DNA of 64,000 bases from Bdellovibrionales bacterium (GCA_965206675.1 CBDBKL010000008.1:103208-167207); one strand, 5' to 3'. Shown: positions 38,583 through 63,248, counted from the stretch's first letter. A program made the numbers and translations. Notes: generated from the sequence alone by a model not told the origin.

Positions 38583-39007
38583 GTAATATCTTAGAAAAAC
38601 AAAAACTATTAACAGAAATGTATCATTCGGCACCTATTGCTAAAACAACAGGTATCACCTTAGAGTACAATGAACTTCATCAAGCCGTTTTTTATTTGAA
38701 ATATAATTCTAAGTTAGATCATGGAATGGGAGGAATCTTTGGCGGCACTTTGGCAACCCTTATTGATTTGGCAGCATGGTTTACAGCAGCTCCACAGTTC
38801 GATCATTGGATTTTAACTGTAGAGTACACAACCCGTATAGTCAGGGAATCTTCTCAAATAGACCTCTGGGCAAGGGGTATAAATAGAAAGATTGGAAGAA
38901 AGACAGCCTTTACGGATGTAGAAGTCACAGATAAAGAGAAAAAACTTATAGCCTATGGATCTGGAACATTCCGCAGCACTAATCGCACGATTAAGAAAAT
39001 ATATTAG
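38579..39007 (+). CDS. PaaI-type hotdog-fold thioesterase
   Basis: 142 aa. Its start overlaps the yitT-like stop (ATGA). Size and the GG..GG..ATLID pattern fit PaaI/YigI-like thioesterases. Confidence 0.55.
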   Translation: MSNILEKQKLLTEMYHSAPIAKTTGITLEYNELHQAVFYLKYNSKLDHGMGGIFGGTLATLIDLAAWFTAAPQFDHWILTVEYTTRIVRESSQIDLWARGINRKIGRKTAFTDVEVTDKEKKLIAYGSGTFRSTNRTIKKIY

Positions 39008-39134
39008 GGGCTTTTGAAAAAGCGTTATCTACTTCGTTGCAATCACTCAAACACTCACTCCGACGTAGGAAAAACTACGCCTCCGTTCGGTTTGAGCTTG
39101 AACGCCTCGTATCTAACATTTTTTCAAAAGCCCC
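39007..39134 (-). repeat. family B palindromic element, copy B1 (128 nt, inverted orientation)
   Basis: The closing stem is GGGGCTTTTGAAAAA / TTTTTCAAAAGCCCC. The core is the reverse complement of the B2/B4/B6 core (…GGCGTAGTTTTTCCTACGTCGGAGTGA…). It starts on the last base of the upstream stop codon. Confidence 0.85.
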
Positions 39135-39256
39135 ATGGTTTTGCACAATTTTCTTTTTTACGTTTGATTGAGAACTTAACGAGAGACCTTGCACACACTG
39201 TCTCTAATTTAAGAACTGTAACTGCACTTTAAAAAGAGGGCACAAAAACAGATACA

Positions 39257-39274
39257 TAAGGCATATATGCCTTA
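39257..39274 (-). terminator. palindromic hairpin downstream of the cold-shock gene
   Basis: TAAGGCATATATGCCTTA is a perfect palindrome. On the minus strand it is followed by TGTATCTGTTTTTGTG, about 40 nt past the csp stop. Confidence 0.5.
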
Positions 39275-39311
39275 CATAAAATCTTGTGAATTGTTTAAAG
39301 ATATAAAGTAC

Positions 39312-39509
39312 TTATTCAGAAGAAACTTTTACTTTAACAGCGCAAGGACCTTTTCTACCCTCACCCACTTCAAACTCCACTTTATCACCATCTTGGGGCT
39401 CTGGCCCTTGAATTTCCGAAACATGGAAAAATAGATCTTTTCCATCGTCTTGAGTGATAAAACCAAACCCTTTTCCTGTATTAAAAAACTTTACTGTACC
39501 CTTACTCAT
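39312..39509 (-). CDS. cspA: cold-shock protein, CspA family
   Basis: 65 aa: [33 protein letters not shown], with RNP1 KGFGFI and an RNP2-like FFHVS. A 244-nt upstream gap is compatible with a long csp-type leader. Confidence 0.9.
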
Positions 39510-39753
39510 TGATCCTTACTCCGTACTCACTTAAAAGATTAATAATCCGGTATTTGTAAAGTCCCCAGCACATAAAAACAATGAAAAAGATCTTATGGCT
39601 TCATTTTTTTCTCTCCACATCCAATATACGAGAACCCCAATCTTTTCGGTGCTTTATTTTCAACGAAGTGCATTATAATAATACAGAATAAAGATTGATA
39701 CTTTTTAAAAATACTTTGTTATTAAAATATGAAGAGGTAGGGGGGTTTATTTT

Positions 39754-40251
39754 ATGACAAAAATTATCATCGCAGGTATTGTCATCGCTCTTTCGGGATT
39801 TTTTTTCTTAGGTTCTGATGACGAAGCCGCTGTTCGTAAAGTTCTTACTGAGATTGAAGAGTTAGCAGAATTTGAGCAACCCTTGACCCAAATAAATACA
39901 GCTGTACGTTTAGGTAAATTGGAAAAGCAATTGACCAACACAATTGACATTAGAGCTTTTAGCAACAAAAGCGACTGGCAACATCAAATAACAAGTATAG
40001 ATCAACTCAAATCTACTGCTTTCCTTGGTGCACGGGCAGCCCAAAGCCATGCGGTTGTTTTAGATCAAATGAGTATTTCTATTGACTCCGATAAAGCCAA
40101 TGCCAACTTTCAAGTGATCTCAGAAGGAATGGCAGAAAGAGGACGTTTTAAAAATATTCTTTCTGTAAGAGTGAATTTAGAAAAGTCAGAAGGCGGAGAT
40201 TGGTTAGTCTCTTCAGCACAAGGAGAATTTGTAACTCCAGATTATCAATAG
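39754..40251 (+). CDS. membrane-anchored hypothetical protein
   Basis: 165 aa with a single N-terminal TM (IIIAGIVIALSGFFFLG). No family was recognised. Confidence 0.45.
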   Translation: MTKIIIAGIVIALSGFFFLGSDDEAAVRKVLTEIEELAEFEQPLTQINTAVRLGKLEKQLTNTIDIRAFSNKSDWQHQITSIDQLKSTAFLGARAAQSHAVVLDQMSISIDSDKANANFQVISEGMAERGRFKNILSVRVNLEKSEGGDWLVSSAQGEFVTPDYQ

Positions 40252-40272
40252 CCTTTGAATGCCACATTATCC

Positions 40273-40296
40273 AAAACCCCCTTTCGTACAAGGGGG
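40273..40296 (-). terminator. intrinsic terminator between convergent genes
   Basis: CCCCCTT-TCGTAC-AAGGGGG is a 7-bp GC-rich stem. On the minus strand it is followed by TTTTGG, 25 nt past the stop of 40321..40761. Confidence 0.6.
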
Positions 40297-40320
40297 CAGT
40301 TTAAATGCTTTCTTCGCTCT

Positions 40321-40761
40321 CTATTCGCAGGTGATAATAGAAGTGTCGTAACGACTAATGCGATAAGTGAAAAGGCAGTTTCCCGTCGCATTCATTCTTT
40401 GTAAGAGTTCTTTACCGTATAAAGTGAAGATAGAACCTCGTACCATTTCCCCTTGGATATGTTGATCCAATATATAGGTGTAGGTGTTCATTAGAGAAGA
40501 CGGAGAAGAGTTGCTTCGAATCGCAGTGAGTGCAATCTGAAGTTTGTTCCCATCTTTTGAGCACGTCACATCATTTAAAGTGACTCCTTCAATGGCTGAA
40601 GAGAGACCCCACGTAAAGTTTTCGGCAGACTCGCAGGCACTGGACTCCGGAGAGGAAGAAGGAATTGTAAAGTTGATTTCTTCCGCTGAGAATGCATGGG
40701 CCGAAAAACTAAAAATTTGAAGAGTTAAAAATCCGATCATCGTCATAATTGCTGTATTCAT
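40321..40761 (-). CDS. secreted hypothetical protein
   Basis: 146 aa with a signal peptide (MNTAIMTMIGFLTLQIFSFSAHA). No family was recognised. Confidence 0.45.
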   Translation of the reverse strand: MNTAIMTMIGFLTLQIFSFSAHAFSAEEINFTIPSSSPESSACESAENFTWGLSSAIEGVTLNDVTCSKDGNKLQIALTAIRSNSSPSSLMNTYTYILDQHIQGEMVRGSIFTLYGKELLQRMNATGNCLFTYRISRYDTSIITCE

Positions 40762-41281
40762 TCTTATTTCTCCTTATTTAGTTTACTAGTTTATGGTAGA
40801 TCACAATTCCGTTGTATTTAATTTCAATAAGTATAGTTCATTTTAAATTAAAATCAAAGGGGGATGTAGTTTTTTCAAAATCCTCTGCCTTTTCCATGGG
40901 CACCGAACCCGACGAGAAGGTTTGTGATGGGTTCAATTTTTGATATTATTAAAGAGTTTTCCTGGCCATCGCTTTAAAGACTCATCCAGCTATCATTTTA
41001 TTTCCTGATTTTGACTTAGCCACAGTTGCCTCTTAGATTTGACATTGAACCAGCCAAGAAAGATTCCTCATCGAAAAGAGTTTTTTTATGATAAAGACGA
41101 ATAACTGGTCTATCAAATAGATAGCTATAAAAAATCAAATTATCTGACTTTATTTTTTAAGATTTTTAAGATAAGTTAAAACAAGATATTTTTTTAGAAA
41201 AAACTCTATCGCTAAAGGGAACATCTTTTTCTTTATAATATAAAATAGGATTTCAAGAATATAGGTGATATTGGAATAACG

Positions 41282-42124
41282 ATGATGATGAATACATCAG
41301 AAAAAGTAGAAAATAAAAAAGCCAACCTCTTTAGCCTGTTTCAAACCCAGCGCAAAGATCAGTGGTGGGTAGGGCCGCTTCTTACTTTTATGGGACTATC
41401 AGCCTTTGGAATTTACACGACATGGGCAGCCTTTCAGGGAAATCATTATTTTCATGGCTCCTACTTATCTCCCCTGTACTCCCCCGTACTCTTTACATTT
41501 TTAGAAGCCCCCGGTGCTGCCCCTTTAGAACATGCATGGCTGGGGCTCTGGCCCCAATGGTGGCCCGGCTTTCTTCCCTCTTCCCCTGCTCTTCTTATTT
41601 TAGCTTTTCCCCTCTCTTTTCGCGCCACTTGTTACTATTATAGAAAAGCCTACTACCGATCCTTTTTTGCCACCCCACCTGCTTGCGCTGTAGATGGCCT
41701 TCCTTTAAAAAATTACAAAGGGGAAACCGCCCTTCTTCTCATTCAAAATTTTCATCGCTATGCCATGTATATCGCTTTGGCTTTCATTGGAATTCTCTAT
41801 TACGATGCCTTTATTTCCTTCTTTAGAAATGGTGAATTTGGCATAGGTGTGGGTAGCGTTGTCTTACTTATCAATGCCACCCTACTTGGTCTTTACACTA
41901 CAGGTTGCCACTCTTTCAGACATGTTATCGGTGGACGTCTCAACAGTTTTTCCTGTGGAAGTTGCGCCAAAGTTAGTCACGGACTGTGGTCAAAGGTTTC
42001 GTTTCTAAACGCTCGTCATATGCAATTTGCATGGGTCAGTCTTTTTTGGGTAGGCTTTACCGATCTCTATGTCCGACTTGTCTCTATGGGAATTATCACT
42101 GACTACAACACCTGGGGTTATTAA
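41282..42124 (+). CDS. putative succinate dehydrogenase/fumarate reductase membrane-anchor subunit
   Basis: 280 aa, multi-TM, rich in Trp/His/Tyr. It immediately precedes the flavoprotein gene and overlaps it by 1 nt. The call rests mainly on synteny; size and order are recalled as similar to the Rv0249c-type anchor of three-gene Sdh operons. Confidence 0.5.
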   Translation: MMMNTSEKVENKKANLFSLFQTQRKDQWWVGPLLTFMGLSAFGIYTTWAAFQGNHYFHGSYLSPLYSPVLFTFLEAPGAAPLEHAWLGLWPQWWPGFLPSSPALLILAFPLSFRATCYYYRKAYYRSFFATPPACAVDGLPLKNYKGETALLLIQNFHRYAMYIALAFIGILYYDAFISFFRNGEFGIGVGSVVLLINATLLGLYTTGCHSFRHVIGGRLNSFSCGSCAKVSHGLWSKVSFLNARHMQFAWVSLFWVGFTDLYVRLVSMGIITDYNTWGY

Positions 42125-43971
42125 TGTATTCCGATATTAACCAAATTGAACATGATGTTGTTGTTATTGGTGCCGGAGGAGCGGGACTGAGAGCCGCTAT
42201 TGAATGTTCAGCCCAGGGACTCAATACAGGAGTCGTCAGTAAATCCTTACTTGGTAAAGCACACACCGTAATGGCTGAGGGGGGTATGGCCGCAGCATTG
42301 GGTAATGCTGATGAACGCGATCATTGGAAAATTCACTTCAGAGATACTATGCGAGGGGGAAAGTTTTTAAATCAGTGGCGTATGGCAGAAATCCACGCCA
42401 AGGAAGCTCCCGAAAGAGTCAGAGAATTGGAAGATTGGGGAGCTGTTTTTGATCGCACTCGCACAGGACTCATTAATCAAAGAAATTTTGGTGGTCATCG
42501 TTTTCCAAGATTAGCACATGTTGGAGATCGTACAGGCTTAGAATTAATCCGAACACTTCAAGATCATGGGATTCATCAGGGTTTTACCGCCCATCAAGAG
42601 TGTACGGCTTTAAAACTTTTAAAAGATGGTGAAAGAATTTCTGGCGTACTCGCCTATTGGAGAGAAACGGGCCGATTTGTTATTTTCAAAACGAAGGCTG
42701 TTATTTTAGCCACAGGGGGCGGCGGTAAAGCCTGGCGAGTCACATCTAATTCCTGGGAATACACAGGTGATGGTTTAGCTATGGGCTATGAGGCTGGGGC
42801 GGAATTAATGGACATGGAGTTTGTGCAATTTCATCCTACGGGAATGGTATGGCCCCCTTCGGTTAAGGGAACACTGGTCACAGAAGGCGTCCGAGGAGAT
42901 GGCGGTATATTGTTAAACAACAAAAAAGAACGTTTTATGTTCAACAACATTCCGGAAAAATTTGCACCTGAAACAGCAGACACGGAAGAAGAAGCTAACC
43001 GTTGGTTAGCAGGAGATAAATCAGCTCGTCGTCCACCAGAGCTTCTCACTCGTGATGTTGTTGCCAAAGCCATCATAGCTGAAGTCAAAGCCGGTAGAGG
43101 CTCTCCAAATGGAGGCGTTTTCTTAGATATTGCTTCACGAGTTCCAGCAGAAGTGATTAAGAAAAAACTTCCCTCTATGTATCATCAATTCAAAGAACTT
43201 GCTGAAGTGGACATTACAAAAGAGCCCATGCAAGTTGGTCCTACAACACATTATTTTATGGGGGGGCTAAGGGTCGATCATGACACGCAGGCTACAAAAG
43301 TTCCCGGCCTATTTGCCTGTGGTGAATGTGCAGCAGGACTGCATGGAGCTAATAGATTAGGGGGCAATTCACTTTCGGATCTTATTGTCTTTGGAAAACG
43401 TGCCGGCTTTGGTGCCAGTGAATACATAAAAAATCTATCCAACACACCCAGCATTTTACAAGAACTTGTCGATGAAGGTATTCGTGAAACCACTGCCTGT
43501 TTAAAACGAGAGAATGGCAATAATCCGTATCTCATTCATGAAGACATTCAAAAAACCATGGATCAATATGTCGGTATTGTTCGTAACAAAGAAGACCTGG
43601 GAAAAGGAATTAAAGAGCTACAAACCCTTTGTGAAACAGCAAAAGAGGTTAAAGCCCATGGATCATCTCAATACAATCCTGGATGGCATGAAGCTCTTGA
43701 TTTAAAAAACCTTCTTATCACTTCAGAGGCGGTCGCAAAGTCAGCTCTACTCAGAGAAGAAAGTCGAGGTGGTCACACGCGCACCGACTTTCCTAATGAA
43801 AGAGAGGAAGGACTTGGTTATAATATCATCATTCATAAGTCAGCAGATGGAATGAGTGTAAGAAAAGAAAACCGCACAGAGCCAGATGCAGAATTAAAAC
43901 GAATTGCCCTTTCAAAAATTGAAGATTTGGAATCAGAAGTGGCTAAGGAGAAATCAAATGGCTCTGCGTAA
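42124..43971 (+). CDS. sdhA: succinate dehydrogenase/fumarate reductase flavoprotein subunit
   Basis: 615 aa with FAD fingerprint VVVIGAGGAGLRAA, FVQFHPTG, and active-site block ESRGGHTRTDF. Confidence 0.9.
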   Translation: MYSDINQIEHDVVVIGAGGAGLRAAIECSAQGLNTGVVSKSLLGKAHTVMAEGGMAAALGNADERDHWKIHFRDTMRGGKFLNQWRMAEIHAKEAPERVRELEDWGAVFDRTRTGLINQRNFGGHRFPRLAHVGDRTGLELIRTLQDHGIHQGFTAHQECTALKLLKDGERISGVLAYWRETGRFVIFKTKAVILATGGGGKAWRVTSNSWEYTGDGLAMGYEAGAELMDMEFVQFHPTGMVWPPSVKGTLVTEGVRGDGGILLNNKKERFMFNNIPEKFAPETADTEEEANRWLAGDKSARRPPELLTRDVVAKAIIAEVKAGRGSPNGGVFLDIASRVPAEVIKKKLPSMYHQFKELAEVDITKEPMQVGPTTHYFMGGLRVDHDTQATKVPGLFACGECAAGLHGANRLGGNSLSDLIVFGKRAGFGASEYIKNLSNTPSILQELVDEGIRETTACLKRENGNNPYLIHEDIQKTMDQYVGIVRNKEDLGKGIKELQTLCETAKEVKAHGSSQYNPGWHEALDLKNLLITSEAVAKSALLREESRGGHTRTDFPNEREEGLGYNIIIHKSADGMSVRKENRTEPDAELKRIALSKIEDLESEVAKEKSNGSA

Positions 43972-44827
43972 AATACGAATTTGGCGTTCCGAAGATAGCA
44001 AAACCGCAAATCATAAAAATGGAAATTTACCTAATAAAACCGAAGGTAATCAAAACCCGATCTCAACCAATGAAACCAAAAATCCTTCCTTAAACTACGA
44101 TCAAAAGAAAGGAACATTTAAAGACTATGAAGTTGAGGTCAGTACAGGAATGGTTGTTTTAGATGTTATACATTTGATTCAAGCGCAACAAGCACCTGAT
44201 TTAGCTGTTCGTTGGAATTGTAAGGCGGGAAAATGCGGATCTTGCAGTATGGAAATCAATGGAAAACCTCGCTTAGGATGTATGACTCGTATGAACACTT
44301 TTGCAGAACATGAGACCATAACCATTCAACCTCTTAAGTCCTTCCCAGTGATAAAAGATCTCGTAACAGATGTTTCATGGAATTATGAACAAAATAAAAA
44401 AATTGCAAAGTTTAAACCCCGCCCTCGAGATAAAGATGGTAAGCACCGTATGTATCAAAATGATGTGGATAGAGTGCAAGAGTTTCGGAAATGCATAGAG
44501 TGTTATCTTTGCCAAAACGTCTGTCATGTATTGAGAGATCACGATAAAAAAGATAAGTTTATTGGCCCTCGGTTTATGATACGAGTGGCAGGACTTGAAA
44601 TGCACCCTTTAGATACAGAGGACCGTATCCCTAAATTAAAGGAAGAGTATGGTTCTGGGATGTGTAATATCACTCGCTGTTGTACGGAAGTGTGTCCCGA
44701 ACACATTGGCATTACCGACAACGGAATTATTCCTATGAAGGAACGTGTAGTGGACCGATATTATGACCCCATATTATGGTTAAAACGCAAAATATTCGGT
44801 GATTCTAAAAAGAAAACAAACACATAA
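43958..44827 (+). CDS. sdhB: succinate dehydrogenase/fumarate reductase iron-sulfur subunit
   Basis: The ATG at 43958 has AAGGAG 7 nt upstream and overlaps the sdhA stop by 14 nt. The 2Fe-2S motif is CKAGKCGSCSMEINGKPRLGC. The other clusters are CIECYLCQNVC and CNITRCCTEVCP. Confidence 0.85.
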   Translation: MALRKIRIWRSEDSKTANHKNGNLPNKTEGNQNPISTNETKNPSLNYDQKKGTFKDYEVEVSTGMVVLDVIHLIQAQQAPDLAVRWNCKAGKCGSCSMEINGKPRLGCMTRMNTFAEHETITIQPLKSFPVIKDLVTDVSWNYEQNKKIAKFKPRPRDKDGKHRMYQNDVDRVQEFRKCIECYLCQNVCHVLRDHDKKDKFIGPRFMIRVAGLEMHPLDTEDRIPKLKEEYGSGMCNITRCCTEVCPEHIGITDNGIIPMKERVVDRYYDPILWLKRKIFGDSKKKTNT

Positions 44828-45011
44828 GAACTTCATTCTCTCATAAACCCAAAGACAGCAACTAAGAGTATAAATTAATTTCAATATGAAAGGGTAACCT
44901 TTTCACTGCTTTTGGACTCATTCGAGTTTTATAGATCAATAGATTATAATGAGCCGGAAATAAAACCACTTAGGGAGTTTATAGTTCAGCACTAAAACTG
45001 TATTGAAATCT

Positions 45012-47954: not shown

Positions 47955-48004
47955 TTTGTGTGATTGCAACAAAATCGGTAACACTTCTTCATTTGCAATT
48001 AGAC

Positions 48005-48130
48005 GGACTGTTGAAAAAGTGTTAGATACGAGACGTTCAAGCTCAAGCCGAACGCAGGCGTAGTTTTTCCTACGTCGGAGTGAAGGCTTGAGTGATTGCA
48101 ACGAAGTAGATGACGCTTTTTCAACAGTCC
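48005..48130 (+). repeat. family B palindromic element, copy B2 (126 nt)
   Basis: The closing stem is GGACTGTTGAAAAAG / CTTTTTCAACAGTCC around the conserved core. It ends 11 nt before the ATG of the next gene. Confidence 0.85.
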
Positions 48131-48141
48131 AAAGGAAAATT

Positions 48142-49104: not shown

Positions 49105-49109
49105 AGATT

Positions 49110-53384: not shown

Positions 53385-53789
53385 GAGAGAGAATTTTTCT
53401 CAAGGATTTCAAAACGCAGCTCTTTGAAGCACAAGATATTATTATTTAAATCTTAATATTATACGAAGAGATGGTTTTTATTTCCTTTCAAAGTGCAGGG
53501 CGTATTGTGATGAGGGACATATTTATACTTTTAGGATATTTCAGAGGGAATTTTTCTCAGGAGGGTTCAAAATGAGTTTTCTGAGGCGCAGAGTATTTTT
53601 TCTTTCCGGAGCGCAGGTCGTACCGTGATGAAGACCGCATTTATATTTTTAGGATATTTCAGGAGGGAATTTTTCTCAAGAGGGTTCAAAACGAGTTTTC
53701 TGAGGCGCAGGGCGTATCTCCCAAAGGGAGAGACGAGCTGCGGCCCTCAGAACTGTCTGAGCTTTTGAACTCTCTTGAGAAAAATTCCC
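53385..53789 (+). repeat. family C mosaic: half-unit, two ~97-nt direct repeats and a 125-nt palindromic unit
   Basis: The half-unit is 53385..53435. The direct repeats are 53495..53591 and 53613..53710. The palindrome 53665..53789 runs GGGAATTTTTCTCAAGAGGGTTCAAAA ... TTTTGAACTCTCTTGAGAAAAATTCCC. Confidence 0.8.
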
Positions 53790-53823
53790 AATCAAACGTA
53801 AAAAAGAAAACTATGTAAAGAGC

Positions 53824-53910
53824 CAGATACAAACCGAAGCGACATAGGCGTAGTTTTTCCTACGTCGGAGTGAGTGTTTGAGTGATTATAGTCAAGTCGA
53901 TGACATTTTC
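53824..53910 (+). repeat. family B element, internally deleted copy B3
   Basis: CAGATAC-[deletion]-AAACCGAAGCGACATAGGCGTAGTTTTTCCTACGTCGGAGTGAGTGTTTGAGTGATT... matches the B core. Confidence 0.7.
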
Positions 53911-53926
53911 TTGATTCGTATTAGGA

Positions 53927-54052
53927 GGACTGTCGAAAAGATATCAGATACGAGGCGTTCAAGCTCAAACCGAACGGAGGCGTAGTTTTTCCTACGTCAG
54001 AGTGAGTGTTTGAGTGATTGCAACGAAGTAGATGATACCTTTTCGACAGTCC
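53927..54052 (+). repeat. family B palindromic element, copy B4 (126 nt)
   Basis: The closing stem is GGACTGTCGAAAAG.TATC / GATA.CTTTTCGACAGTCC. It abuts the ctaA stop codon at 54053. Confidence 0.85.
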
Positions 54053-54967
54053 TTAGGAGTATGACAGATAAATGCCCTTAATCACATTAACCCAAATCAA
54101 CGTAGCCAGAGCCAAATGCATCACTGTAATAACAGGAGGGATTTGAAGTAACACATTCATTACTCCCACAACGATTTGAAGAAATACTAATACAACTAAC
54201 ATACCCGTAACATTAAACAGTTTCTTTGATACCCACTCTTCATTTTTATGTCGAGATACAACAAGATAAACTGAACTAAGAGTAATCACAGTTAAATAAG
54301 CTCCCAGTCTATGTAAAACCTGTAGTCCCACATTTCCTTTCAAAGTGGGGATTAACTCTCCATTACAAAAAGGAAAGTCAGCACAAGCTAAACCTGCATA
54401 GTTAGAAGATACTAGTCCTCCCAATATAATTTGTCCCAAAACAACAATTAATGAAAAAATAAAAAGATGAAAGATCTGCCTTGGGACTTTTATTTTATCC
54501 ACTCCAGAAGAATCTTGAATCAACAACTTTACCCAAAATAATAATCCTAAGAAAACCAAACCAAAAACAAGGTGGGTTGTTACGACTCCAAAATGAAGAA
54601 GTTTTAAAACCGTTAACCCACCTAAAACAATTTGAGCTACAAGAACACATAAGGCTAAAAGAAAAGTCCATTTTATTGCAAGAATGCGCTGAGGAGAAAA
54701 AGAATTTTCTTGAAAAATTCTAGAACCTTTCAATAAATTGCAACCCAAAATCACAAACAAAATACTAATTACGCCTGCGAAAACTCTATGCGTCCATTCA
54801 AAATAAACTTGTATTTGAAATTCAGGAATGAGTTTTCCAAAACACAGAGGCCAATCCGGACAAGCTAACCCCGCATTCATAGCCCGAACCGCTCCACCAA
54901 GAGCTATTAAGATAAATGTCCCTAACATTAAACTCGTCAATAAATAAGATATTCCCCTTTTACCCAT
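54053..54967 (-). CDS. ctaA: heme A synthase (COX15/CtaA family)
   Basis: 304 aa, 8 TM, with conserved His-containing helices (EWTHRVFAG, LQVLHRLGA). It is the last gene of the oxidase operon. Confidence 0.8.
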   Translation of the reverse strand: MGKRGISYLLTSLMLGTFILIALGGAVRAMNAGLACPDWPLCFGKLIPEFQIQVYFEWTHRVFAGVISILFVILGCNLLKGSRIFQENSFSPQRILAIKWTFLLALCVLVAQIVLGGLTVLKLLHFGVVTTHLVFGLVFLGLLFWVKLLIQDSSGVDKIKVPRQIFHLFIFSLIVVLGQIILGGLVSSNYAGLACADFPFCNGELIPTLKGNVGLQVLHRLGAYLTVITLSSVYLVVSRHKNEEWVSKKLFNVTGMLVVLVFLQIVVGVMNVLLQIPPVITVMHLALATLIWVNVIKGIYLSYS

Positions 54968-55859
54968 AGTAATAAACTCCCCAAATGTATGGAGTCCATT
55001 TTTCTATAAGAGGAACACAGAGGTAAATAAGCATACTCAGATTCACCCATAAGAAAAAAGGGAGCCAATTTTTTTCAGCCCTATGTTTGGAATAACAATA
55101 AAACTCCCACACCACTTTTAAAGAAAAGGGAATAACAAGAAGCAAATATAATATCCCCGTTTCAACAAACCAAGGGGATGTCATAGCCAGAGTCACATAG
55201 GATAAAACATAAAACCCCATATGAAAGAGTGTTTTATCAATCCCAAAAATACGCGGTAAAACAGGTATATCTCCTTGAGCATAATCTTTTTGATACCTTA
55301 TGGCTAACGACCAAAAATGCGGCATTTGCCATAAGAACATAATTAAAAAAACATAGAGAGCTTCAAGGGTAAAAATATCAGAATTGATAGCCGCATATCC
55401 AATCACGACCGGCATAGCCCCAGGCAAAGCACCCGGTATGGCTCCAAAAGCCATCCGCTTCTTCCAATACAAGGTATAAAAGCCATTATAAAAAATAAGA
55501 GTTCCCAGCGATAACCAAAAGGCAAATTCAGAAGTAAAAAGAAGACCAATAGATCCCATAATAAGAAGTAGTCCTGCTATGATAAAGGCTGTTTGAGGTT
55601 TTATTTTTCCTTGAGGAATAGGGCGAAACTTTGTTCTATCCATTTGACTATCCAGCTTCCACTCTTGAGCTTGGTTTAAAGCGAAGCTGCCAGCCGTAAA
55701 CAATATAAAACTCATTTGAAATAAAATAAAATGAGCCACATTAAGAGAAATTTCTATACGGTAACCCAGTCCATAGCCAATAAAACTACTTAAAGCTACA
55801 AATACAAGTATCCCCGGTTTAAAAAGTTCTAATTTCGAAGAGCGACGTTTTCTGGATAT
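54960..55859 (-). CDS. ctaB: protoheme IX farnesyltransferase (heme O synthase)
   Basis: UbiA-family blocks ALNQAQEWKLDSQMDRTKFRPIPQGKI are present. The conserved N-terminal helix LELFKPGILVFVALSSFIGYGLG lies in frame upstream of the first canonical start (GTG 55739). An ATA at 55859 sits 6 nt after a perfect AGGAGG. The resulting 299 aa is the normal length. Confidence 0.75.
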   Translation of the reverse strand: MSRKRRSSKLELFKPGILVFVALSSFIGYGLGYRIEISLNVAHFILFQMSFILFTAGSFALNQAQEWKLDSQMDRTKFRPIPQGKIKPQTAFIIAGLLLIMGSIGLLFTSEFAFWLSLGTLIFYNGFYTLYWKKRMAFGAIPGALPGAMPVVIGYAAINSDIFTLEALYVFLIMFLWQMPHFWSLAIRYQKDYAQGDIPVLPRIFGIDKTLFHMGFYVLSYVTLAMTSPWFVETGILYLLLVIPFSLKVVWEFYCYSKHRAEKNWLPFFLWVNLSMLIYLCVPLIEKWTPYIWGVYYYG

Positions 55860-55884
55860 GCCCCACCTCCTAAACTATTCCTTA

Positions 55885-56208
55885 CTATTCATTTTGAGAG
55901 CCATAGTTGAGATCATAAAAATCAGTACGCGTAAAAAGATCTGCAGCCGTTAACCCAAAGAATATAAGTAGAAATACAAACCCCGATACAAATATCAATC
56001 TATTTAAATGACCCTCATGATTCTGGTGCATAAACCACCAAACAACAAGTGAAGCCTTTCCTGTTGCAATCAACATTGCAATAAAAGTATTCAAATGACC
56101 AACATCAAATTGAGGAAGAGAAGCCACAACAGTAACAACTGTCAACGCAATTAACGCTCCGAAGACTTTATAATATGTCACTCTCGGTGTTATATGATGC
56201 TTATCCAT
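55885..56208 (-). CDS. cytochrome c oxidase subunit IV (bacterial CoxD/CtaF-like)
   Basis: 107 aa with 3 TM, in the position expected between subunit III and ctaB. Confidence 0.7.
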   Translation of the reverse strand: MDKHHITPRVTYYKVFGALIALTVVTVVASLPQFDVGHLNTFIAMLIATGKASLVVWWFMHQNHEGHLNRLIFVSGFVFLLIFFGLTAADLFTRTDFYDLNYGSQNE

Positions 56209-56218
56209 ACCTTACTCC

Positions 56219-56881
56219 TTAAGTCACTAAATACATCAGTGGAAATAAATAAATCCAAATCAAATCCACAAGGTGCCAATACAATCCCACACCCTCGACC
56301 GCCGTATATTTATGGGGTGTAAAGTCACCGCGCTTGTTTCTAAGAATAAGCCAATAAATCAGTCCCATGCCCACAAGAACATGCAGACCATGAAGACCTG
56401 TCATTACGAAGTAAAGACCATAAAACATGGCAACGTTCTTTGGAATACCTTCAGTCAGTAACTCAGAATTAAAAAAGTTATTGGGTAGTGTCCCCACATG
56501 AATTTTATGTTGATATTCAAAATATTTGACGACCATAAAACCACAGGCACAGAGAAGAGTTAACCAAAGATTAATTTGAGCTTTTCGACGTTCACCATTT
56601 TGCAAATAATTAATGGAAAGAGCCATTGTTAAAGAACTCGTCAATAAAACAACAGTATTAAATCCCCCCAGCCACTTATTTAAAGAGCGAGATCCCTCTA
56701 AGAAAATATCCGGATAGAGATTTTTAAATATGGCATAGGCCACAAATAGCCCACCAAACATTAAAATCTCAGTAGCTAAGAAAAGCCAAACCCCTTCTTT
56801 AGAAGTTTTATACTCATGCTCTGCACTTTCAAAATGGCTGGCATAAGCTGTTCCATTAGAATCTGTATTAACGGTAGTCAT
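56219..56881 (-). CDS. coxC: cytochrome c oxidase subunit III
   Basis: 220 aa, multi-TM, with blocks typical of subunit III ([34 protein letters not shown]). Confidence 0.9.
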
Positions 56882-58457
56882 AAGGATCCACCTTTATATT
56901 TGGTATTGTTTCAAAATTTGTATGGATAGGAGGAGAGGATATCATCCATTCCATTGAGCGTGCTCCCCAAGGGTTATCACTGGCTTTCCGGCCTTTTAAC
57001 ATACCATGAACAACTGCATATAAAGCAACAAGAAAACCTACCCCAATTAACCATGAACCCATTGTGGAAATTTTATTTAAAAGCTCAAATTCCGGAACAT
57101 AGTCATGATATCTTCGTGGCATACCTAGATTCCCTAAGATAAACTGAGGGAAAAACGTAACATTAAAACCAACAAAAACGAAAAGCCAAGAAACCTTAGA
57201 GAGAAAGTCATTGTGCATTTTTCCAAACATTTTCGGAAACCAATAAAACAATCCTCCCATTAATGCCATAAGTGTACCGCCCACCATCACATAGTGAAAA
57301 TGGGCTACAACAAAGTATGTATCATGGAGATGCACATCTGTTGCAAGCGTTGCCAGAAAAATACCCGTAACTCCACCAATAGTAAAAATAAACATAAAGC
57401 CAATAGCCCAGAGCATAGGAGAGTCTAACTGAATACTCCCCTTGTACATTGTGGCCACCCAGTTGAAAAGTTTAATCGCCGTTGGGACCCCAACCAGCAT
57501 AGTGATAACAGAGAAAAGCATACCTGCAAAGTCAGACTGCCCTGAAACAAACATGTGATGTCCCCAAACAACGAAACTCACAGCCGCAATGGCCACAGAA
57601 GAATAGGCAATGGCTTTATACCCGAAAATTGTTTTTCTAGAAAATGCAGCAATTAATTCACTAATAACTCCCATCGCAGGTAACACCATAATATAAACGG
57701 CTGGGTGAGAGTAAAACCAAAAGAAGTGTTGAAAAAGAACAGGATCTCCACCCAACTCTGGCGTAAAGAATCCTACACCCAAAACTTTTTCAGCCACCAA
57801 CAAGAGAAGCGTGATGGCCAAAACAGGGGTTGCAAGCACCTGAATAATAGCTGTGGAATAAAGCCCCCATACAAAAAGAGGCATTTTCATCATGGTCATT
57901 CCTGGGGCTCTTAATTTATGAACTGTAGCGATAAAATTTAACCCTGTAAGAATAGAAGAAAAACCCAATATAAATGCCCCCAGCACCATATTGATAACCC
58001 CCCAACTGGTACCAACACTGTAAGGGGTATAAAACGTCCATCCCGTATCGACTCCTCCAAACAAAACGGCTGATGCCGCCACAACACATCCCAAAATATA
58101 TATATAGTAACTGAGTAAATTTAATCTTGGAAAAGCGACATCCTTAGCTCCAATCATAATGGGAAGAAAGAAGTTTCCAAGAAATGCTGGAATACCAGGA
58201 ATAATAACCATAAAGACCATTATGGCACCATGAAGGGTCATCATTTGATTATATTGATCTTGATTTAACGAAAACACTCCCCCTTCCACTGTTCCCGGTG
58301 CAAACAGTTCCATTCGCAACAGAAGTGCAGCCATCCCTCCGACAAAAAAGAAGAAAAAGATAGAAAAGAAATACATAAGTGCAATACGTTTATGATCTAG
58401 CGTCGTTAGCCAAGACCAAATCCCTTTTTCATGTTTAATATAATCTACGTGAGACAT
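56868..58457 (-). CDS. coxA: cytochrome c oxidase subunit I
   Basis: 529 aa with [21 protein letters not shown] and VAHFHYV. Confidence 0.95.
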
Positions 58458-58470
58458 AAATTTACCACTC

Positions 58471-59394
58471 CTATTTTATCGTCTTCATATATTCAATAAT
58501 TTGTTGAATTTGAATATCAGTTATACGCCCTTGATAGGGAGGCATTGAAGGCGGATAACCTTTAACAATTTCCTTTAATGGGTTTAAAATAGATTCTTTA
58601 ATATAGGCTTCATCAACCACTACAGTTTTTCCACTCTCTAAATTTTGCGTTCTACCCCAAAGTCCTTTAAATGATGGCCCCAAAACTTTAGAGCCATCTA
58701 ATGAATGACATGTAAAACAAACTTGAGTTTTATAGAGTTTTTCACCTTTTTGTACATCTGTTAAGTTGGTCACATTAGACTCTTCTTCAAGCCATTCTTC
58801 ATATTCATCTTCTTCTAACACATGAACCTTCCCTATCATTGTAGAATGCTGAGTTCCACAATACTCCGTACAGAAAATATGAAACTCCCCTGTTTGCGTT
58901 GCTTCAAACCACAAACGAGATCTTTTTCCCGGCACAGCATCTTGCTTGACCCGAAAGCTGGGTATGTAAAAAGAATGGAGTACATCATCAGAGGTTAAAT
59001 TGATAACGACAGCTTTATTGACAGGGACATAAAGCTCATTCACCAAAGAGAAACCCTCTTTATAATTAATTTGCCAAGCCCATTTTTTCCCGACAACTTC
59101 TATTTGCAGTGCATCTGTTGGGAAAGTTCTTTGCACTTTATAAACTTTCCAGCCCACATAAAAAATAATCATAAATAAAACAAAGGGGATAAAACTCCAA
59201 AGAAACTCAGCAAAATAATTGTGAGTAATGTGTGGTGTTTTATCCTGGTCTGTACGACGACGATATTTGATAATAAAATACGTCATCCCCCCCATAAGCA
59301 GAAGGAAAGAGAGCACAGAACATGCAAGTATAAAGTAATAGACAGCATCCACTGATCCCGCAACTGTCGATGCCTTGACGGGCATTAAATCCAT
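58471..59394 (-). CDS. coxB: cytochrome c oxidase subunit II with fused cytochrome c domain (caa3 type)
   Basis: 307 aa with CuA site [12 protein letters not shown] and a C-terminal haem c motif CFTCHS. Confidence 0.9.
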
Positions 59395-59428
59395 ATTCTC
59401 TCCTGTTGTCTCTTCACAATCTCAAACT

Positions 59429-60277
59429 TCACGCTTTGTCTCCCCGATTCCCCTGCAATTTCTCTCGACGTTGTTTCATCCAAAAGGGAACAAGAAAAAA
59501 AGCCATTGCCAAAGCCATCAACCCCATACTGGCTCTCATGATATTGTACGCATAAAAAGCATAAGTTTTTCTTTCAGGATCATATTGAAAACAATAGAGT
59601 ATCAATCGATCAATGACATCACCTAGTTTTCCCTGTGCTGCTTCCAATAGGCCAATCGTTAATTTTTTTTGATCAAATTCAATCCCATAGAGATATCTCG
59701 AAATCACACCTTCTGGCGTTAGCATGATCACGGCTGAAGAATGCGCCCATTGTTTGGTCTCTTTGTCCCAACGGTATTTAAAACCCACAGCCTCTGCTAA
59801 AGTAGAAATCTGTTCTTGAGATCCTGTTAAAAAATGCCAACCCCCTTCAGCTCCTTCACGATTGTAAACTTTTAAATAATTTTTCTTTTTGGCTTCAGCC
59901 AAAGAAGAAGTTTCCTTGGGGTCAATACTAACAACAACCATTTCAAACTCTTGACCTAATGTCCACTTGACGGACTTTAAACCTTCCGTCACTCCATTGA
60001 GGTGGAAATTACATAAATGAGGACAACTATAATAAACTAAAGAAAGCATTATAGGTTTATCCCCATTTATATATTTCCCTAGGGTGACTTCTTCTCCCTT
60101 GTCATTTTTAAATTTTAAACTTGGATCTAATTTTCTACCAAGATGCTCCGTAATACCTACAGTTGCTAACTCCGGAGGCACATCAGAGGCTGCCAATCCA
60201 TTCGGCCTCCATGGGCGACTATTACTCATCACAGGAAGTGCGAAACAAAAAATAAAAAGAACAGAAAAAAACTTCAT
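59429..60277 (-). CDS. SCO1/SenC-family copper chaperone with C-terminal membrane extension
   Basis: The Met at 60277 opens a signal/anchor sequence and forms an ATGA overlap with the upstream stop. A thioredoxin-fold CPHLC motif is present. An extra C-terminal TM segment reads MGLMALAMAFFLVPFW. Confidence 0.8.
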   Translation of the reverse strand: MKFFSVLFIFCFALPVMSNSRPWRPNGLAASDVPPELATVGITEHLGRKLDPSLKFKNDKGEEVTLGKYINGDKPIMLSLVYYSCPHLCNFHLNGVTEGLKSVKWTLGQEFEMVVVSIDPKETSSLAEAKKKNYLKVYNREGAEGGWHFLTGSQEQISTLAEAVGFKYRWDKETKQWAHSSAVIMLTPEGVISRYLYGIEFDQKKLTIGLLEAAQGKLGDVIDRLILYCFQYDPERKTYAFYAYNIMRASMGLMALAMAFFLVPFWMKQRREKLQGNRGDKA

Positions 60278-60738
60278 TGCCCCTCTACAAATTTCATCCA
60301 TGTATCTTTAGGTTCTGCTGGCGGCGAAGCCATTTGAGAACGCAAATAACTAATAATAGAAAGTTTTATACTCTTTGGTAAATGCGAAAAATTATGTTCA
60401 CCATTTATTCCATCTTGTAGAGATGCATACAAACTCTGACTTGTTCTTCCTTCAGAGATTCGAGAAAGAATATCATCTTTTCCAGAGGACGAATGACAAA
60501 AAACACAATGTACCTGATACAGCTTTTCCCCTTGTTGTGTTTGTGAGAGCCAAACCTGTACACGCTTCTCAGCTTCACTTGTTTTAAACTGAGGAATCAC
60601 ATATGAAAGTTGTTTATCAAGAGCCCCTGGATTGAGAAGAATAACAATTCCAAAAAACAATAAGGTGAAAAGAAAAGCTCCTCCAAAAAAAAACATTCCA
60701 GTAAATTTACCTGACGACATAACCCTTATCCTGCTCAA
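60274..60738 (-). CDS. membrane-anchored mono-haem cytochrome c
   Basis: 154 aa with an N-terminal TM and the CVFCHS haem-binding motif. It is the first gene of the oxidase operon. Confidence 0.75.
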   Translation of the reverse strand: MSRIRVMSSGKFTGMFFFGGAFLFTLLFFGIVILLNPGALDKQLSYVIPQFKTSEAEKRVQVWLSQTQQGEKLYQVHCVFCHSSSGKDDILSRISEGRTSQSLYASLQDGINGEHNFSHLPKSIKLSIISYLRSQMASPPAEPKDTWMKFVEGQ

Positions 60739-60865
60739 TTATGCGAAATGTTAAACTCACGTTTTATCCCTTTCTGGAAACATTTCAAGAGAGTTTGCGT
60801 TGCAATAAAGTACACCCCGAGGGAGAAGACTTCACTCTGTTACAGAGTCTTCATTTATTTTTTTA

Positions 60866-61014
60866 TTAAGAGCCTATCCACTATAAACGGCTGCGACTGC
60901 ACCCGGCTTTGTTTTTAAGCAAAAAACGCCCTCAATGGCCCTAAGCACGCCCCTTGGCATTTTTTATCCCTGCCGAACCAAGTTTTCATCACAAAGTTTG
61001 GATAGGCTTCTAAG
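60866..61014. repeat. family A palindromic element, short copy (about 149 nt)
   Basis: The termini are TTAAGAGCCTATCCA / TGGATAGGCTTCTAAG. The core GGCTTTGTTTTTAAGCAAAAAACGCC...GGCATTTTTTAT aligns with 37480..37666. Confidence 0.8.
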
Positions 61015-61096
61015 CCTTTATCAAAAAAGCCCACACACATTGCAACGCACAACTTAAATCTTGATTCTACCCAGTAAGAATAGATAGAGTGCCATT

Positions 61097-61192
61097 GGTC
61101 GGGTCCCATACAATAGAGCTTTTTGTGAATCCCGTCAGATCTGGAAAGAAGCAGCGGTAACTTGAGATCTATGTGATATGGGGTGCCTGACC
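61097..61192 (+). ncRNA. ffs: signal recognition particle RNA (small 4.5S type)
   Basis: GTCAGATCTGGAAAGAAGCAGCGG matches the domain IV consensus of E. coli 4.5S RNA (GUCAGGUCCGGAAGGAAGCAGCC), including the GGAA tetraloop and AGCA loop. The terminal helix is GGTCGGGTCCC / GGGGTGCCTGACC. Its position just upstream of dnaX matches Bacillus. The ends are approximate. Confidence 0.75.
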
Positions 61193-61223
61193 ATTAACCA
61201 TCTTTCTGAAAGGATAAAAGACT

Positions 61224-62996
61224 CTGACCTATCAAGTTATTGCTCGCAAATGGCGGCCAAAAAATTTCAATGAAGTTGTGGGACAGGGCCATGTTTCACA
61301 GACATTACAAAATGCATTGAAAAACGGACGCCTCCCCCATGCGCTTTTATTCAGTGGCCCCCGCGGTGTTGGAAAAACATCTTCGGCTCGTATATTAGCA
61401 AAGAGTTTACGCTGCTCTCGCGCAAAGACCTTTGTTCCCTGTAACAAATGTACCACTTGTGAAGACATTGCAATGGGAAGTCACATAGACGTGATAGAAA
61501 TTGATGGAGCCAGCAACAATGGAGTTGATGCGATCAGAGAACTCCGAGAGACAGTTGGATATATGCCCTCTTCTGGAAAATACAAAATTTATATTATAGA
61601 TGAAGTGCACATGCTTTCGACAAGTGCCTTTAACGCCTTGTTAAAAACTCTAGAGGAGCCCCCTGAACATGTTGTTTTTATATTTGCAACGACAGAGCCA
61701 CAAAAAATTCCCCCCACGGTCCTCTCTCGCTGCCAACGCTTTGATTTTCGAAGAATCTCCACTCGAGATATCGTGAGTCACCTATTAAAAATCTGCAAAC
61801 AAGAAAGTGTAAAGACTCAAGAGGAAGCTCTATGGATGATTGCTCGGCAATCAGATGGAGCCATGAGAGATAGTCAAAGTCTCTTAGATCAAGCCATTAC
61901 ATTTTCAAATGGCACACTCACACCTGAAAAATTGTCAGATATCTTTGGCCTCACCCACCGCCAACTTTTAATGGACACTCTAAAAGCTTTTACAGAACGG
62001 AACGAAACATTAGCTCTTAAGACCATAGAAGATCTTTTCAAAGCGGGCCACAGTGCCAATCAATTTATCCAAGATCTTCTGGAAGAACTCAGGCACTTAT
62101 TGATGGTCAAATTAGAACCTAAAGCTCTCTCTCATCTCGTTGATCTCCCAGATAGTGAAATTGCCTTTTTACAAAGTATTTCAGAACATCTCACCTCAGA
62201 GGATATTCAAGCTCTTTTTGATATGGGTCTTAAGGGTGCAAATGATATTTTAAGGGCTTCAAATCCACATATAGTTTTAGAAATGTTAATTATTCGTATG
62301 ACACGAGCACCTCGTATTATTGAAATTGAAAGTCTTCTAAAAAAAAAAGAAATAACAAATAATTCCCTCTCCCCTGAAAACAAAGTTAGATCTTTTAATG
62401 GGAATTCCCATTCCCTGAAGACATCAAATGACACGCTTACTTCGACACCTCCCAAAAATACAAAAACCCCATCTGTCGATGACACCTCTAAAAACCCTAT
62501 ACGGCTCAATAAATCCAAATCAAAGACAACGGAAAGCAACAAAAAGTTAAATAAGACCAAAACGAAACTATTAAACAGAGAAACAAATTACGCAGTAGAA
62601 AGAAATCTTCAATATAATTGGGAACAATTTATTCAAACGATAAAAAAACATAATGTATCTATGGGTGCGAAGTTAGAACATGCGGCCCTTATATCTATAG
62701 ATAAAGGAAAGGCCATCATACAGATTAGCTCTTCTGACAAATTCCTTTATGAGCAAATCAAAGAAAACAAATTCCTAAAAGAACTCGGGTCTCTATTTCA
62801 ATCTGTATGGGGTTTGGAGTTAGAACCCACCATTGCTCTCACAGACAAACCCTCAGAGCTGAGCCCAAGGAAAAGATTAGAGGAATTAAATAAACATAAG
62901 ATAGACAATCTTAAGATTGAGGTTGAAAATCATCCTATGGTAAAAAAACTAAAGGATACTTTTAAGGGGGACATTCACATAGAGGATTGTGATTAA
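61224..62996 (+). CDS. dnaX: DNA polymerase III subunit tau (and possibly gamma)
   Basis: Walker A GPRGVGKTS, zinc module CNKCTTCEDI, IIDEVHMLS and VLSRCQRF are present. The conserved N-terminus TYQVIARKWRPKNFNEVVGQ lies in frame upstream of the first canonical start (GTG 61278). Only a CTG at 61224 (GAAAGGA 9 nt upstream) can include it. Confidence 0.85.
   Translation: MTYQVIARKWRPKNFNEVVGQGHVSQTLQNALKNGRLPHALLFSGPRGVGKTSSARILAKSLRCSRAKTFVPCNKCTTCEDIAMGSHIDVIEIDGASNNGVDAIRELRETVGYMPSSGKYKIYIIDEVHMLSTSAFNALLKTLEEPPEHVVFIFATTEPQKIPPTVLSRCQRFDFRRISTRDIVSHLLKICKQESVKTQEEALWMIARQSDGAMRDSQSLLDQAITFSNGTLTPEKLSDIFGLTHRQLLMDTLKAFTERNETLALKTIEDLFKAGHSANQFIQDLLEELRHLLMVKLEPKALSHLVDLPDSEIAFLQSISEHLTSEDIQALFDMGLKGANDILRASNPHIVLEMLIIRMTRAPRIIEIESLLKKKEITNNSLSPENKVRSFNGNSHSLKTSNDTLTSTPPKNTKTPSVDDTSKNPIRLNKSKSKTTESNKKLNKTKTKLLNRETNYAVERNLQYNWEQFIQTIKKHNVSMGAKLEHAALISIDKGKAIIQISSSDKFLYEQIKENKFLKELGSLFQSVWGLELEPTIALTDKPSELSPRKRLEELNKHKIDNLKIEVENHPMVKKLKDTFKGDIHIEDCD
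62339..62348 (+). promoter_or_regulatory. A10 tract, candidate frameshift / transcriptional-slippage site in dnaX
   Basis: The sequence is CTA AAA AAA AAA GAA in frame. The -1 frame stops after 4 codons (62360..62362) and the +1 frame after 1 codon (62353..62355). The tract sits after about residue 375 of 590. Confidence 0.35.
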
Positions 62997-63062
62997 GAGA
63001 GAGGGGGCTAAAGAAAATTCCCCACTCAGCGATAAAAAAGAAAGTTAAACGAAAAACTAGGA

Positions 63063-63115
63063 GGGCTTTTGAAAAAGTGTTTGAGTGATTGCAACGAAGT
63101 AGATGACACTTTCGC
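63063..63115 (+). repeat. family B element, centre-deleted copy B5
   Basis: GGGCTTTTGAAAAAGTG is joined directly to TTTGAGTGATTGCAACGAAGTAGATGACAC, that is, the left terminus plus the right arm. Confidence 0.7.
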
Positions 63116-63122
63116 ATTAGGA

Positions 63123-63248
63123 GGACTGTCGAAAAGGTGTCAGATACGAGGCGTTCAAGCTCAAACCGAACGGAGGCGTAGTTTTTCCTACGTCGGAGTG
63201 AAGGTTTGAGTGATTGCAACGAAGTAGATGACACCTTTTCGACAGTCC
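63123..63248 (+). repeat. family B palindromic element, copy B6 (126 nt)
   Basis: It has a perfect 19-bp closing stem GGACTGTCGAAAAGGTGTC / GACACCTTTTCGACAGTCC. It lies inside the dnaX-ybaB spacer and ends 23 nt before the ybaB ATG. Confidence 0.9.

Follow-up and report, generated by a model that had tools for sequence, protein, structure and literature searches.

Short palindromic repeats between bacterial genes have been described in several forms, and family B, the repeat analysed here, resembles each of those considered below in part. It was recognized by an earlier note in a 64,000-nt stretch of DNA from a Bdellovibrionales bacterium (GCA_965206675.1 CBDBKL010000008.1:103208-167207; G000:C8:103208-167207 in our numbering of the source genome, G000), and the whole of that stretch is called the window. 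ERIC/IRU (RU-1) elements are, like family B, imperfect palindromes of ~126-127 nt that form a stable stem-loop and lie in transcribed intergenic regions at gene ends. In both, the element is sometimes fused to the upstream reading frame, and both are common to many genera at very different copy numbers. ERIC has TA at its ends and duplicates a TA target (PMC2759123). In contrast, family B has neither TA ends nor a TA duplication, and no similarity to it was detected in plasmids or phages, or by blastn in “distant” mode in 5,426 complete E. coli genomes. Moreover, the one-orientation anchoring at stop codons that we describe for family B is not among the ERIC features found in PMC2759123.

Elements of the REP/BIME/REPIN group are likewise extragenic palindromes that are read as folded single strands; they have compensated stems, form mosaics and dimers, and insert without duplicating the target. 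In E. coli, many REPs are found no more than 15 nt from a stop codon. However, a REP is a 20-40-nt hairpin with a conserved 5ʹ GTAG, whereas family B is a 125-nt rod with three conserved internal loops. REP dimers are inverted, whereas those of family B are head-to-tail, and family B has no cognate REP-associated tyrosine transposase (RAYT) in the source genome and no association with the flanks of one elsewhere. The Correia/NEMIS elements of Neisseria resemble family B in their high copy number, their length (~100-150 nt), their inverted ends at gene boundaries, their presence or absence between strains and their co-transcription with neighbouring genes. The terminal repeats of Correia are fixed and 26 bp long, a TA is duplicated, and the element includes a site for integration host factor. 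Unlike Correia, family B has ends that co-vary, makes no duplication and is fixed in orientation relative to the gene. Finally, the attC sites of integron cassettes, such as the Vibrio cholerae repeats, are imperfect palindromes of similar length that follow directly after a stop codon. It is their bottom strand, the one opposite the coding strand, that folds; their core sites have the order RYYYAAC...GTTRRRY, and they are arranged in a cassette array beside an intI gene.

By kind, family B belongs with REP, ERIC and Correia; yet none of their defining features is found in it: no TA is duplicated, the ends are not fixed, a cognate RAYT is absent, and the sequence is dissimilar. Full-text searches on Bdellovibrio repeats turned up no published description of it. 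We propose, with a probability of about 0.6, that family B is a non-coding, non-autonomous mobile element of ~125 nt that uses a folded single strand as its substrate and is copied in directionally, anchored at stop codons.

Covariation, folding strand and gene ends

The source genome (1.87 Mb, 37% G+C, 8 contigs, 92% complete) holds 143 non-overlapping copies, distributed across all contigs, when the family profile is run over its whole length. Eighty-nine copies cover the model from end to end, 37 retain the 3ʹ end without the 5ʹ part, and 3 are truly 3ʹ-truncated. The 126-nt consensus, GGACTGTTGAAAAGGTGTCAGATACGAGGCGTTCAAGCTCAAACCGAACGGAGGCGTAGTTTTTCCTACGTCGGAGTGAGTGTTTGAGTGATTGCAACGAAGTAGATGATACCTTTTCAACAGTCC, folds as a single rod hairpin at -64.4 kcal/mol. 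Together, the copy number and the stability of this fold place the repeats far beyond chance. About 18 of the loci are head-to-tail dimers or trimers, in which a terminal unit, type-T, comes after an upstream unit that we call type-I and that has a distinct 3ʹ arm, ...GATTATAATCAAGTCGATGACACTTTCTTGATTCGTATTAGGA. Pairwise identity between copies averages 85%, the nearest-neighbour median is 94%, and only one pair reaches 99%.

Base-pairing in family B is maintained while the paired bases change. For 36 diverse copies from the source genome and 3 from relatives, aligned over 43 predicted pairs and compared with 500 shuffles, double changes occur at 30 of the 43 pairs; 98.3% of the cells pair, against 90.5% after shuffling, and no shuffle (0/500) reaches the observed value. 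In a set of 34 copies from different genera, double changes are seen at 42 of the 43 pairs, and the share of cells that pair is 93.8%, compared with 67.9% after shuffling (0/500); the alignment used here was fitted to the covariance model, which favours structure somewhat. The earlier note had argued that selection acts on the hairpin rather than on a fixed transposase-binding end. The double changes and the shuffle tests support this claim, as do the lack of a target duplication and of a parent insertion sequence (IS) with matching ends, both described below.

What is conserved across genera is the loops and not the stems: CAGATGCGAGGCG, GGCGTAC..GTACGYCGGAG and CAACGAAGCAGATG. Arranged by part, the fixed blocks are ...TCAAAAAGG-nn-CAGATGCGAGGCGG in the 5ʹ arm, GGCGTAC-loop-GTACGYCGGAG at the tip, and CAACGAAGCAGATG-nn-CCTTTTTCA in the 3ʹ arm. 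Two CAGATG blocks lie opposite each other and are predicted to form two tandem G·A pairs between Watson-Crick pairs; beyond them come a GA/GAA loop and then a GC/AA loop. The layout of four to six A, hairpin, and four to six T is conserved across the phylum. In copies from the source genome GTAG is confined to the apical stem, and most other genera have GTAC there.

The two strands of the element are not equivalent. In the orientation of the model, G·U outnumbers A·C by 240:81 within the source genome and by 111:12 across genera. Pair 17-110 illustrates this asymmetry: it is GC in 34 copies, AT in 26, GT in 12 and AC in 2, such that mixed arm haplotypes give G·T often and A·C almost never. That G·T is common and A·C nearly absent in recombinant arms argues for selection on one folded strand and not for mere copying. 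Folding energies agree with this. With RNA parameters, the folding strand has -57.5 kcal/mol and the other strand -44.8 kcal/mol in copies from the source genome, and is the more stable in 74 of 77; the corresponding values for copies from other genera are -63.4 and -50.4 kcal/mol (32/33). With DNA parameters the values for the source genome are -28.0 and -23.8 kcal/mol, and the folding strand is the more stable in 75 of 77 copies. Selection on the hairpin is thus on one particular strand.

The same strand defines the position of the element relative to genes. With genes called as long open reading frames (ORFs) in the source genome, 57 of 77 full copies have the 3ʹ end of their folding strand pointing at the stop of an opposite-strand gene. 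For 43 of 89 full copies and 17 of 37 5ʹ-truncated copies, an opposite-strand ORF of at least 120 codons terminates -12 to +15 nt from the 3ʹ end. This anchored share, 48%, compares with 3.3% expected for random oriented intergenic insertion. Other genera show the same arrangement, with the stop end of a gene facing the 3ʹ end in 23 of ~30 copies, about 17 of them within 7 nt; outside the order, stop anchoring was seen in 1 of the 3 copies checked. The earlier note described every copy as sitting exactly at a gene boundary. This holds in the window, and over the whole genome it sharpens to a narrower statement, that about half of the copies have a stop codon adjoining their 3ʹ end.

In six to seven genes the reading frame enters the element and ends at the element's own TGA (GGACTGTTGA). 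The stops that adjoin copies are TAA in 21 cases, TAG in 11 and TGA in about 2 (n=34), against 57%, 20% and 23.5%, respectively, genome-wide. The shortage of TGA beside copies may be a clue to targeting. Relative to the leading strand of replication, anchored copies are distributed 41/17, against a background of 62% co-directional genes, and unanchored copies 34/33. Hence, the orientation of copies is set by the gene and not by replication, and we rejected replication-strand targeting of the IS200/IS605 kind because there is no strand bias.

Filled and empty sites, and the spread of the family

Family B is mobile. Four informative sites, all in genus g31, for which many complete genomes exist, are filled in some genomes and empty in close relatives; one further site carries another palindrome in the relatives. 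At site 1, filled in G046 and empty in G058 and G066 (flanks 95% identical), 124 nt of element and 31 extra 5ʹ nt lie between the terminator of the neighbour and the CTA of a convergent gene, with the 3ʹ end 4 nt from the stop. Transduction of a donor flank was considered here and rejected: a 27-nt extra 5ʹ sequence at this site is unique in G046 and absent from four relatives, and an origin in a donor flank could therefore not be shown.

Site 2 is an operon junction of the form TAA-4 nt-ATG. It is filled in G140 and G062 and empty in G118, G070 and G137 by alignment and in G098 by match coordinates. The empty sequence is ...GCTTAA-TAA-ATG and the filled sequence is GCTT-AGGCTGTTG...CAACCT-AGAGTAAAGTTGCATT-ATG, from which it follows that the stop becomes a TAG made with the element's own bases; the 5ʹ junction carries 16 additional nt. 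At site 3 (filled in G058 and G046; empty in G066, G102 and G082) the element replaces 29 nt and its 3ʹ end is 1 nt from a TTA. The 3ʹ end is also 1 nt from a TTA at site 4, filled in G118 and empty in G062, G140, G098 and G137, where the 5ʹ side is not alignable. Site 5 (L033) was left out, its flanks being too diverged to read.

In every one of the four filled sites the 3ʹ junction is sharp, 0-4 nt from a stop, and at the three sites where the 5ʹ junction can be read it is ragged. No target duplication was found at these sites or in 77 flank pairs of the source genome. Such a one-sided junction (sharp at the 3ʹ end, ragged at the 5ʹ end, no duplication), together with anchoring in one orientation 0-4 nt behind stops, is unusual among the repeats we compared.

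Site 6 is filled in G098. In G062, G118 and G140 the same slot holds an unrelated, perfect palindrome of 78 nt. This palindrome, AGGTACCTGCTTCCCTTTGTGTCGATTCGG...CCGAATCGACACAAAGGGAAGCAGGTACCT, occurs in L075-L077 (G062, G118 and G140), which are orthologous to L027:1501-1624. Different hairpin elements appear to be interchangeable at one gene end.

The family is spread over the phylum. A covariance model built on the in-genome alignment detects full-length relatives in 48 of 151 genomes (24 of 69 genera) within the order and in 42 of 151 genomes (31 of 100 genera) within the phylum; all of these matches span the full model. Up to 23 matches were listed per genome in the survey of the order, and high copy numbers there are accordingly lower bounds (at least 22 in G078, for example). 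About a third of the sampled genera in the phylum therefore carry a structurally conserved 125-nt element that neither Rfam nor annotation pipelines name. In the window itself, Rfam gives no family-B match at the gathering threshold, and nothing at E<=1 over 53780-54080. The model built here allows copies to be masked or annotated, and filled and empty sites are natural experiments on hairpins in 3ʹ untranslated regions. The family is absent from G001, a genome of the same genus as the source genome and about 80% identical to it in the ctaA gene.

The exact 20-nt apex, GGCGTAGTTTTTCCTACGTC, has one match each in genome and metagenome collections (L007:7673-7791 and L008:132-250). Both are at the tip of a similar hairpin of ~120 nt, with model scores of 33.7 and 62.9 bits. 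The L007 contig is labelled as a metagenome-assembled genome of Chitinophaga pinensis, a label that could not be verified, and L008 is an unlabelled metagenome contig. Either the family reaches beyond the phylum or the L007 contig is mis-binned.

Possible routes of insertion

How might such an element be inserted next to stop codons? We infer a single-strand intermediate and 3ʹ-anchored copying. The substrate would be one folded strand: a long, rod-shaped hairpin in which three purine-rich internal loops and the apical stem are fixed, and whose closing stem is made of the A-tract and the T-tract. Directional copy-and-insert would set the 3ʹ end of this strand 0-4 nt past a stop (0-15 nt in old copies), antisense to the gene. 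The 5ʹ end would be joined imprecisely, leaving extra bases, small deletions or 5ʹ-truncated copies, or carrying along upstream units as dimers. We suggest that the mobilising machinery reads the shape and the fixed loops. Stem mutations would then survive only if compensated or as G·T wobbles on the folding strand, and propagation that depends on shape would account for the “compensatory” closing stems to which the earlier note drew attention. After insertion, the A-tract, hairpin and T-tract would lie in a 3ʹ untranslated region. A secondary role as a dispensable terminator or 3ʹ-end hairpin is plausible, judging from the conservation of this layout.

Several observations weigh against this proposal. 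About half of the copies have no stop anchoring, about six have the 5ʹ end beside the stop, and eight end just upstream of a start; furthermore, genes were defined by simple long-ORF calls and not by a trained gene finder. The copies in the source genome are old, as the nearest-neighbour median of 94% indicates, which makes the activity of the family there historical, and G001, from the same genus and only about 80% identical, is entirely without the family. Selection could explain in part why 5ʹ truncations prevail, in that a deletion across the 3ʹ end would take the stop of the neighbouring gene with it. Filled and empty sites were informative in four cases only, in one genus, and none is in the lineage of the window. 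Lastly, all candidate mobilisers that we tested (RAYT, reverse transcriptase, IS1595 and a PD-(D/E)XK nuclease) are without support, and since no mobilising protein was found the mechanism rests on the anatomy of the junctions.

A bolder version of our proposal is speculative. In this version, family B would be inserted by a so far undescribed mechanism that recognises where translation or transcription units end and requires none of the four tested candidates, making it a phylum-wide “stop-codon-homing” element. A folded single strand would be copied in just past a terminating ribosome, anchored at its 3ʹ end, in a process that might be host-templated or enzyme-driven. If the targeting is mechanistic, it would represent a new route by which mobile DNA reaches harmless landing sites, and it could offer a natural way to place a sequence exactly behind a reading frame.

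An alternative explanation is that family B is a functional cis element (a portable bidirectional terminator, a stabiliser of mRNA 3ʹ ends, or a hairpin that tunes translation termination) and that its position at stops results from selection and not from targeting. We regard this as possible but unlikely. It fits the phylum-wide conservation of the A-tract/hairpin/T-tract and the unrelated 78-nt palindrome at site 6, which looks as if any hairpin suffices in that slot. Liang, Rudd and Deutscher reportedly observed in 2015 that E. coli REPs no more than 15 nt from a stop lower translation of the upstream gene. A simple scan, which cannot score stems as long as these, counts 21 terminator-like sites in the window against 14.8±4.3, no clear enrichment. 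However, recent insertions hit gaps of just 4 nt that separate a stop from the following start, or a stop from a neighbour's terminator, an outcome that selection on random hits would rarely produce. In addition, the mRNA-sense strand folds worse by about 13 kcal/mol, copies come and go between genomes that are 95% identical, and G001 manages without the family. A cis-acting function is compatible with mobility and can only be an added, exapted role.

Could family B instead be a REP/REPIN-type element that is moved in trans by a RAYT, a Y1 HUH transposase acting on folded single-stranded DNA, with the enzyme lost from the source genome after an old burst? A hairpin substrate on one strand and the lack of a target duplication would suit such an enzyme. 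Y1 genes (Y1_Tnp, PF01797) are indeed common in the order: 117 of 151 genomes have them, in many cases with several copies and as ORFs of 200-260 aa, and the age of the copies in the source genome would fit a lost enzyme. Nonetheless, Y1 has no match in the source genome (92% complete), nor in G078, which is complete and carries at least 22 copies of the element. Among genomes with family B, 41 of 48 possess Y1, as do 76 of 103 of those that lack the family, and the two are thus not really associated. In element-bearing genomes only 1 of 20 Y1 neighbourhoods (±1.5 kb) includes a copy, 1.3 kb from the gene, and the Y1 genes are not flanked by the element. Besides, an element of 125 nt with several conserved loops is not a REP of 20-40 nt, and it shows no bias in replication strand. 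The earlier note had suggested looking for a cognate RAYT; on the grounds of absence, lack of association and lack of flanking copies we reject RAYT as the mobiliser, and consider a trans-mobilised REP-like element improbable.

A lower probability still attaches to a SINE-like retroelement, in which a transcript of the folding strand would end at its own hairpin and U-tract and be reverse-transcribed from its 3ʹ end at a nick beside a stop, with copying often incomplete or begun from read-in transcripts. The junctions are those of non-LTR (long terminal repeat) or SINE-like elements: precise at the 3ʹ end and ragged at the 5ʹ end, with no fixed target duplication, and with 37 5ʹ truncations against 3 at the 3ʹ end. 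Upstream units carried as dimers and trimers, tolerance of G·U on one strand, and a 3ʹ boundary at a terminator-like T-tract point the same way. However, of the 151 genomes of the order only 53 have RVT_1. It was not found in G046, G118 and G098, which are complete and have one private insertion each, or in G078; on this basis we rejected reverse transcriptase as the mobiliser. The source genome has only a truncated enzyme of a diversity-generating retroelement (DGR) and an AbiP2 defence enzyme. Moreover, ~40% of contexts have no promoter placed for a folding-strand transcript, both neighbouring genes reading the other way. The AbiP2 enzyme is a 486-aa reverse transcriptase (AbiP2 match, 632 bits) encoded at C6:147146-148606 (L064:1171-2631).

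A classical miniature inverted-repeat transposable element (MITE), that is, a deletion derivative of an IS that is cut and pasted by a DDE transposase binding its terminal inverted repeats, as for Correia and ERIC, is largely refuted and now very improbable. Family B has a MITE-like size and terminal inverted repeats, is interspersed between genes, and is present or absent among close relatives. However, there is no target duplication at the four sites, 5ʹ junctions are imprecise at the three readable ones, the terminal repeats co-vary freely, and the orientation is fixed relative to the gene. No pair of family-B ends 0.5-6 kb apart in the source genome encloses a transposase gene. IS1595, the sole multi-copy IS in this genome, was rejected as the parent: it starts GGTTCATGACACTTTAAGTTGAC, and its ends are unrelated to those of family B.

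A further candidate mobiliser was the PD-(D/E)XK “transposase” family (PF12784, Rpn/YhgA-like), with 14 genes in the source genome (for example, C5:21834-22880) and 1 in G001. The paralogues in the source genome have 56-93% identity, and there is one remnant in addition; none is in the window. We rejected this Rpn-like nuclease, as its genes do not lie beside copies and members of the family occur in just 8 of the 151 genomes of the order.

Judged by the arrangement of copies and by their ends, an attC-like recombination site, whose folded bottom strand would be the substrate of a tyrosine recombinase, is scarcely credible despite the likeness described above in size range, imperfect palindrome, placement directly after a stop and folding opposite the coding strand, since copies are scattered beside housekeeping genes on all eight contigs with no co-oriented cassette array, empty sites show that the element was inserted alone and not as a gene with its site, and its ends, GTTGAAAA...TTTTCAAC, are the reverse of the attC order, leaving no Rʹʹ/Rʹ core sites as required.

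Copies and other features in the window

Returning to the window, nhmmer with the family profile places four full and two deleted copies, with E-values from 1e-7 to 7e-43, where the earlier note had put them. Its shared core and the apex CGTAG-TTTTTC-CTACG are both correct, and so are its closing-stem pairs, GGACTGTCGAAAAGGTGTC/GACACCTTTTCGACAGTCC, GGACTGTTGAAAAAG/CTTTTTCAACAGTCC and GGGGCTTTTGAAAAA/TTTTTCAAAAGCCCC. The two deleted copies are the upstream, type-I units of head-to-tail dimers, with the distinct 3ʹ arm of that type.

Two full copies, B1 and B4, are in contact with a stop, the canonical position. B1 (39007..39134, minus strand; nhmmer 39008-39133, 135 bits, model positions 1-126) touches with the 3ʹ end of its folding strand the TAG (39005-39007) of a 4HBT thioesterase gene at 38579-39007 on the plus strand, and this TAG overlaps the first G of B1. 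B4 (53927..54052, plus strand; nhmmer 53927-54052) is a full terminal unit whose 3ʹ end abuts the TAA (54053-54055, minus strand) of ctaA/COX15. The same gene is present in G001 without a family-B match, and the alignment of the two genomes there stops at the 3ʹ end of the gene. Directly upstream in the dimer is B3 (53824..53926, plus strand; nhmmer 53828-53913, model positions 38-119), a type-I unit in which the 5ʹ arm is deleted or replaced and the 3ʹ arm terminates ...GACATTTTCTTGATTCGTATTAGGA.

The other two full copies, B2 and B6, are in a non-canonical position and belong to the minority of about eight whose 3ʹ end is just upstream of a same-strand start codon. B2 (48005..48130, plus strand; nhmmer 48005-48130) begins 50 nt past the stop of a same-strand ORF of 983 aa and ends 11 nt before the ATG (48142) of a gene of the nitronate-monooxygenase family. 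Directly 5ʹ of B2, at 47960..48004 on the plus strand, is a putative 5ʹ-truncated type-I unit, GTGATTGCAACAAAATCGGTAACACTTCTTCATTTGCAATTAGAC; it is below the nhmmer threshold, and its assignment, read by eye against type-I 3ʹ arms, is tentative. B6 (63123..63248, plus strand; nhmmer 63123-63248, 146 bits) is a full terminal unit that lies between dnaX (stop at 62996) and ybaB, on the strand of these genes, and ends 23 nt before the ybaB ATG (63272). Its upstream type-I partner, B5 (63063..63122, plus strand; nhmmer 63074-63115, model positions 77-118), has an internal deletion that joins the 5ʹ arm GGGCTTTTGAAAAAG to a 3ʹ arm from model position 77, and its tail is ...CTTTCGCATTAGGA.

Beyond family B, the only Rfam matches in the window are a small bacterial signal recognition particle RNA at 61097-61195, just upstream of dnaX, and one tRNA at 22034-22107. 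Elsewhere in the source genome, C6:168600-174950 is internally repetitive, with self-matches of ~76-81% identity spaced by 270 nt or multiples of it over >6 kb, and is probably a giant repeat-protein gene. Directly upstream of B3, at 53495-53790, is a different repeat, composed of two direct repeats of ~97 nt and a unit of ~125 nt. It matches about 96 sites in G001, the genome in which family B has no copy, which indicates that the two sister genomes amplified different hairpin or repeat families.

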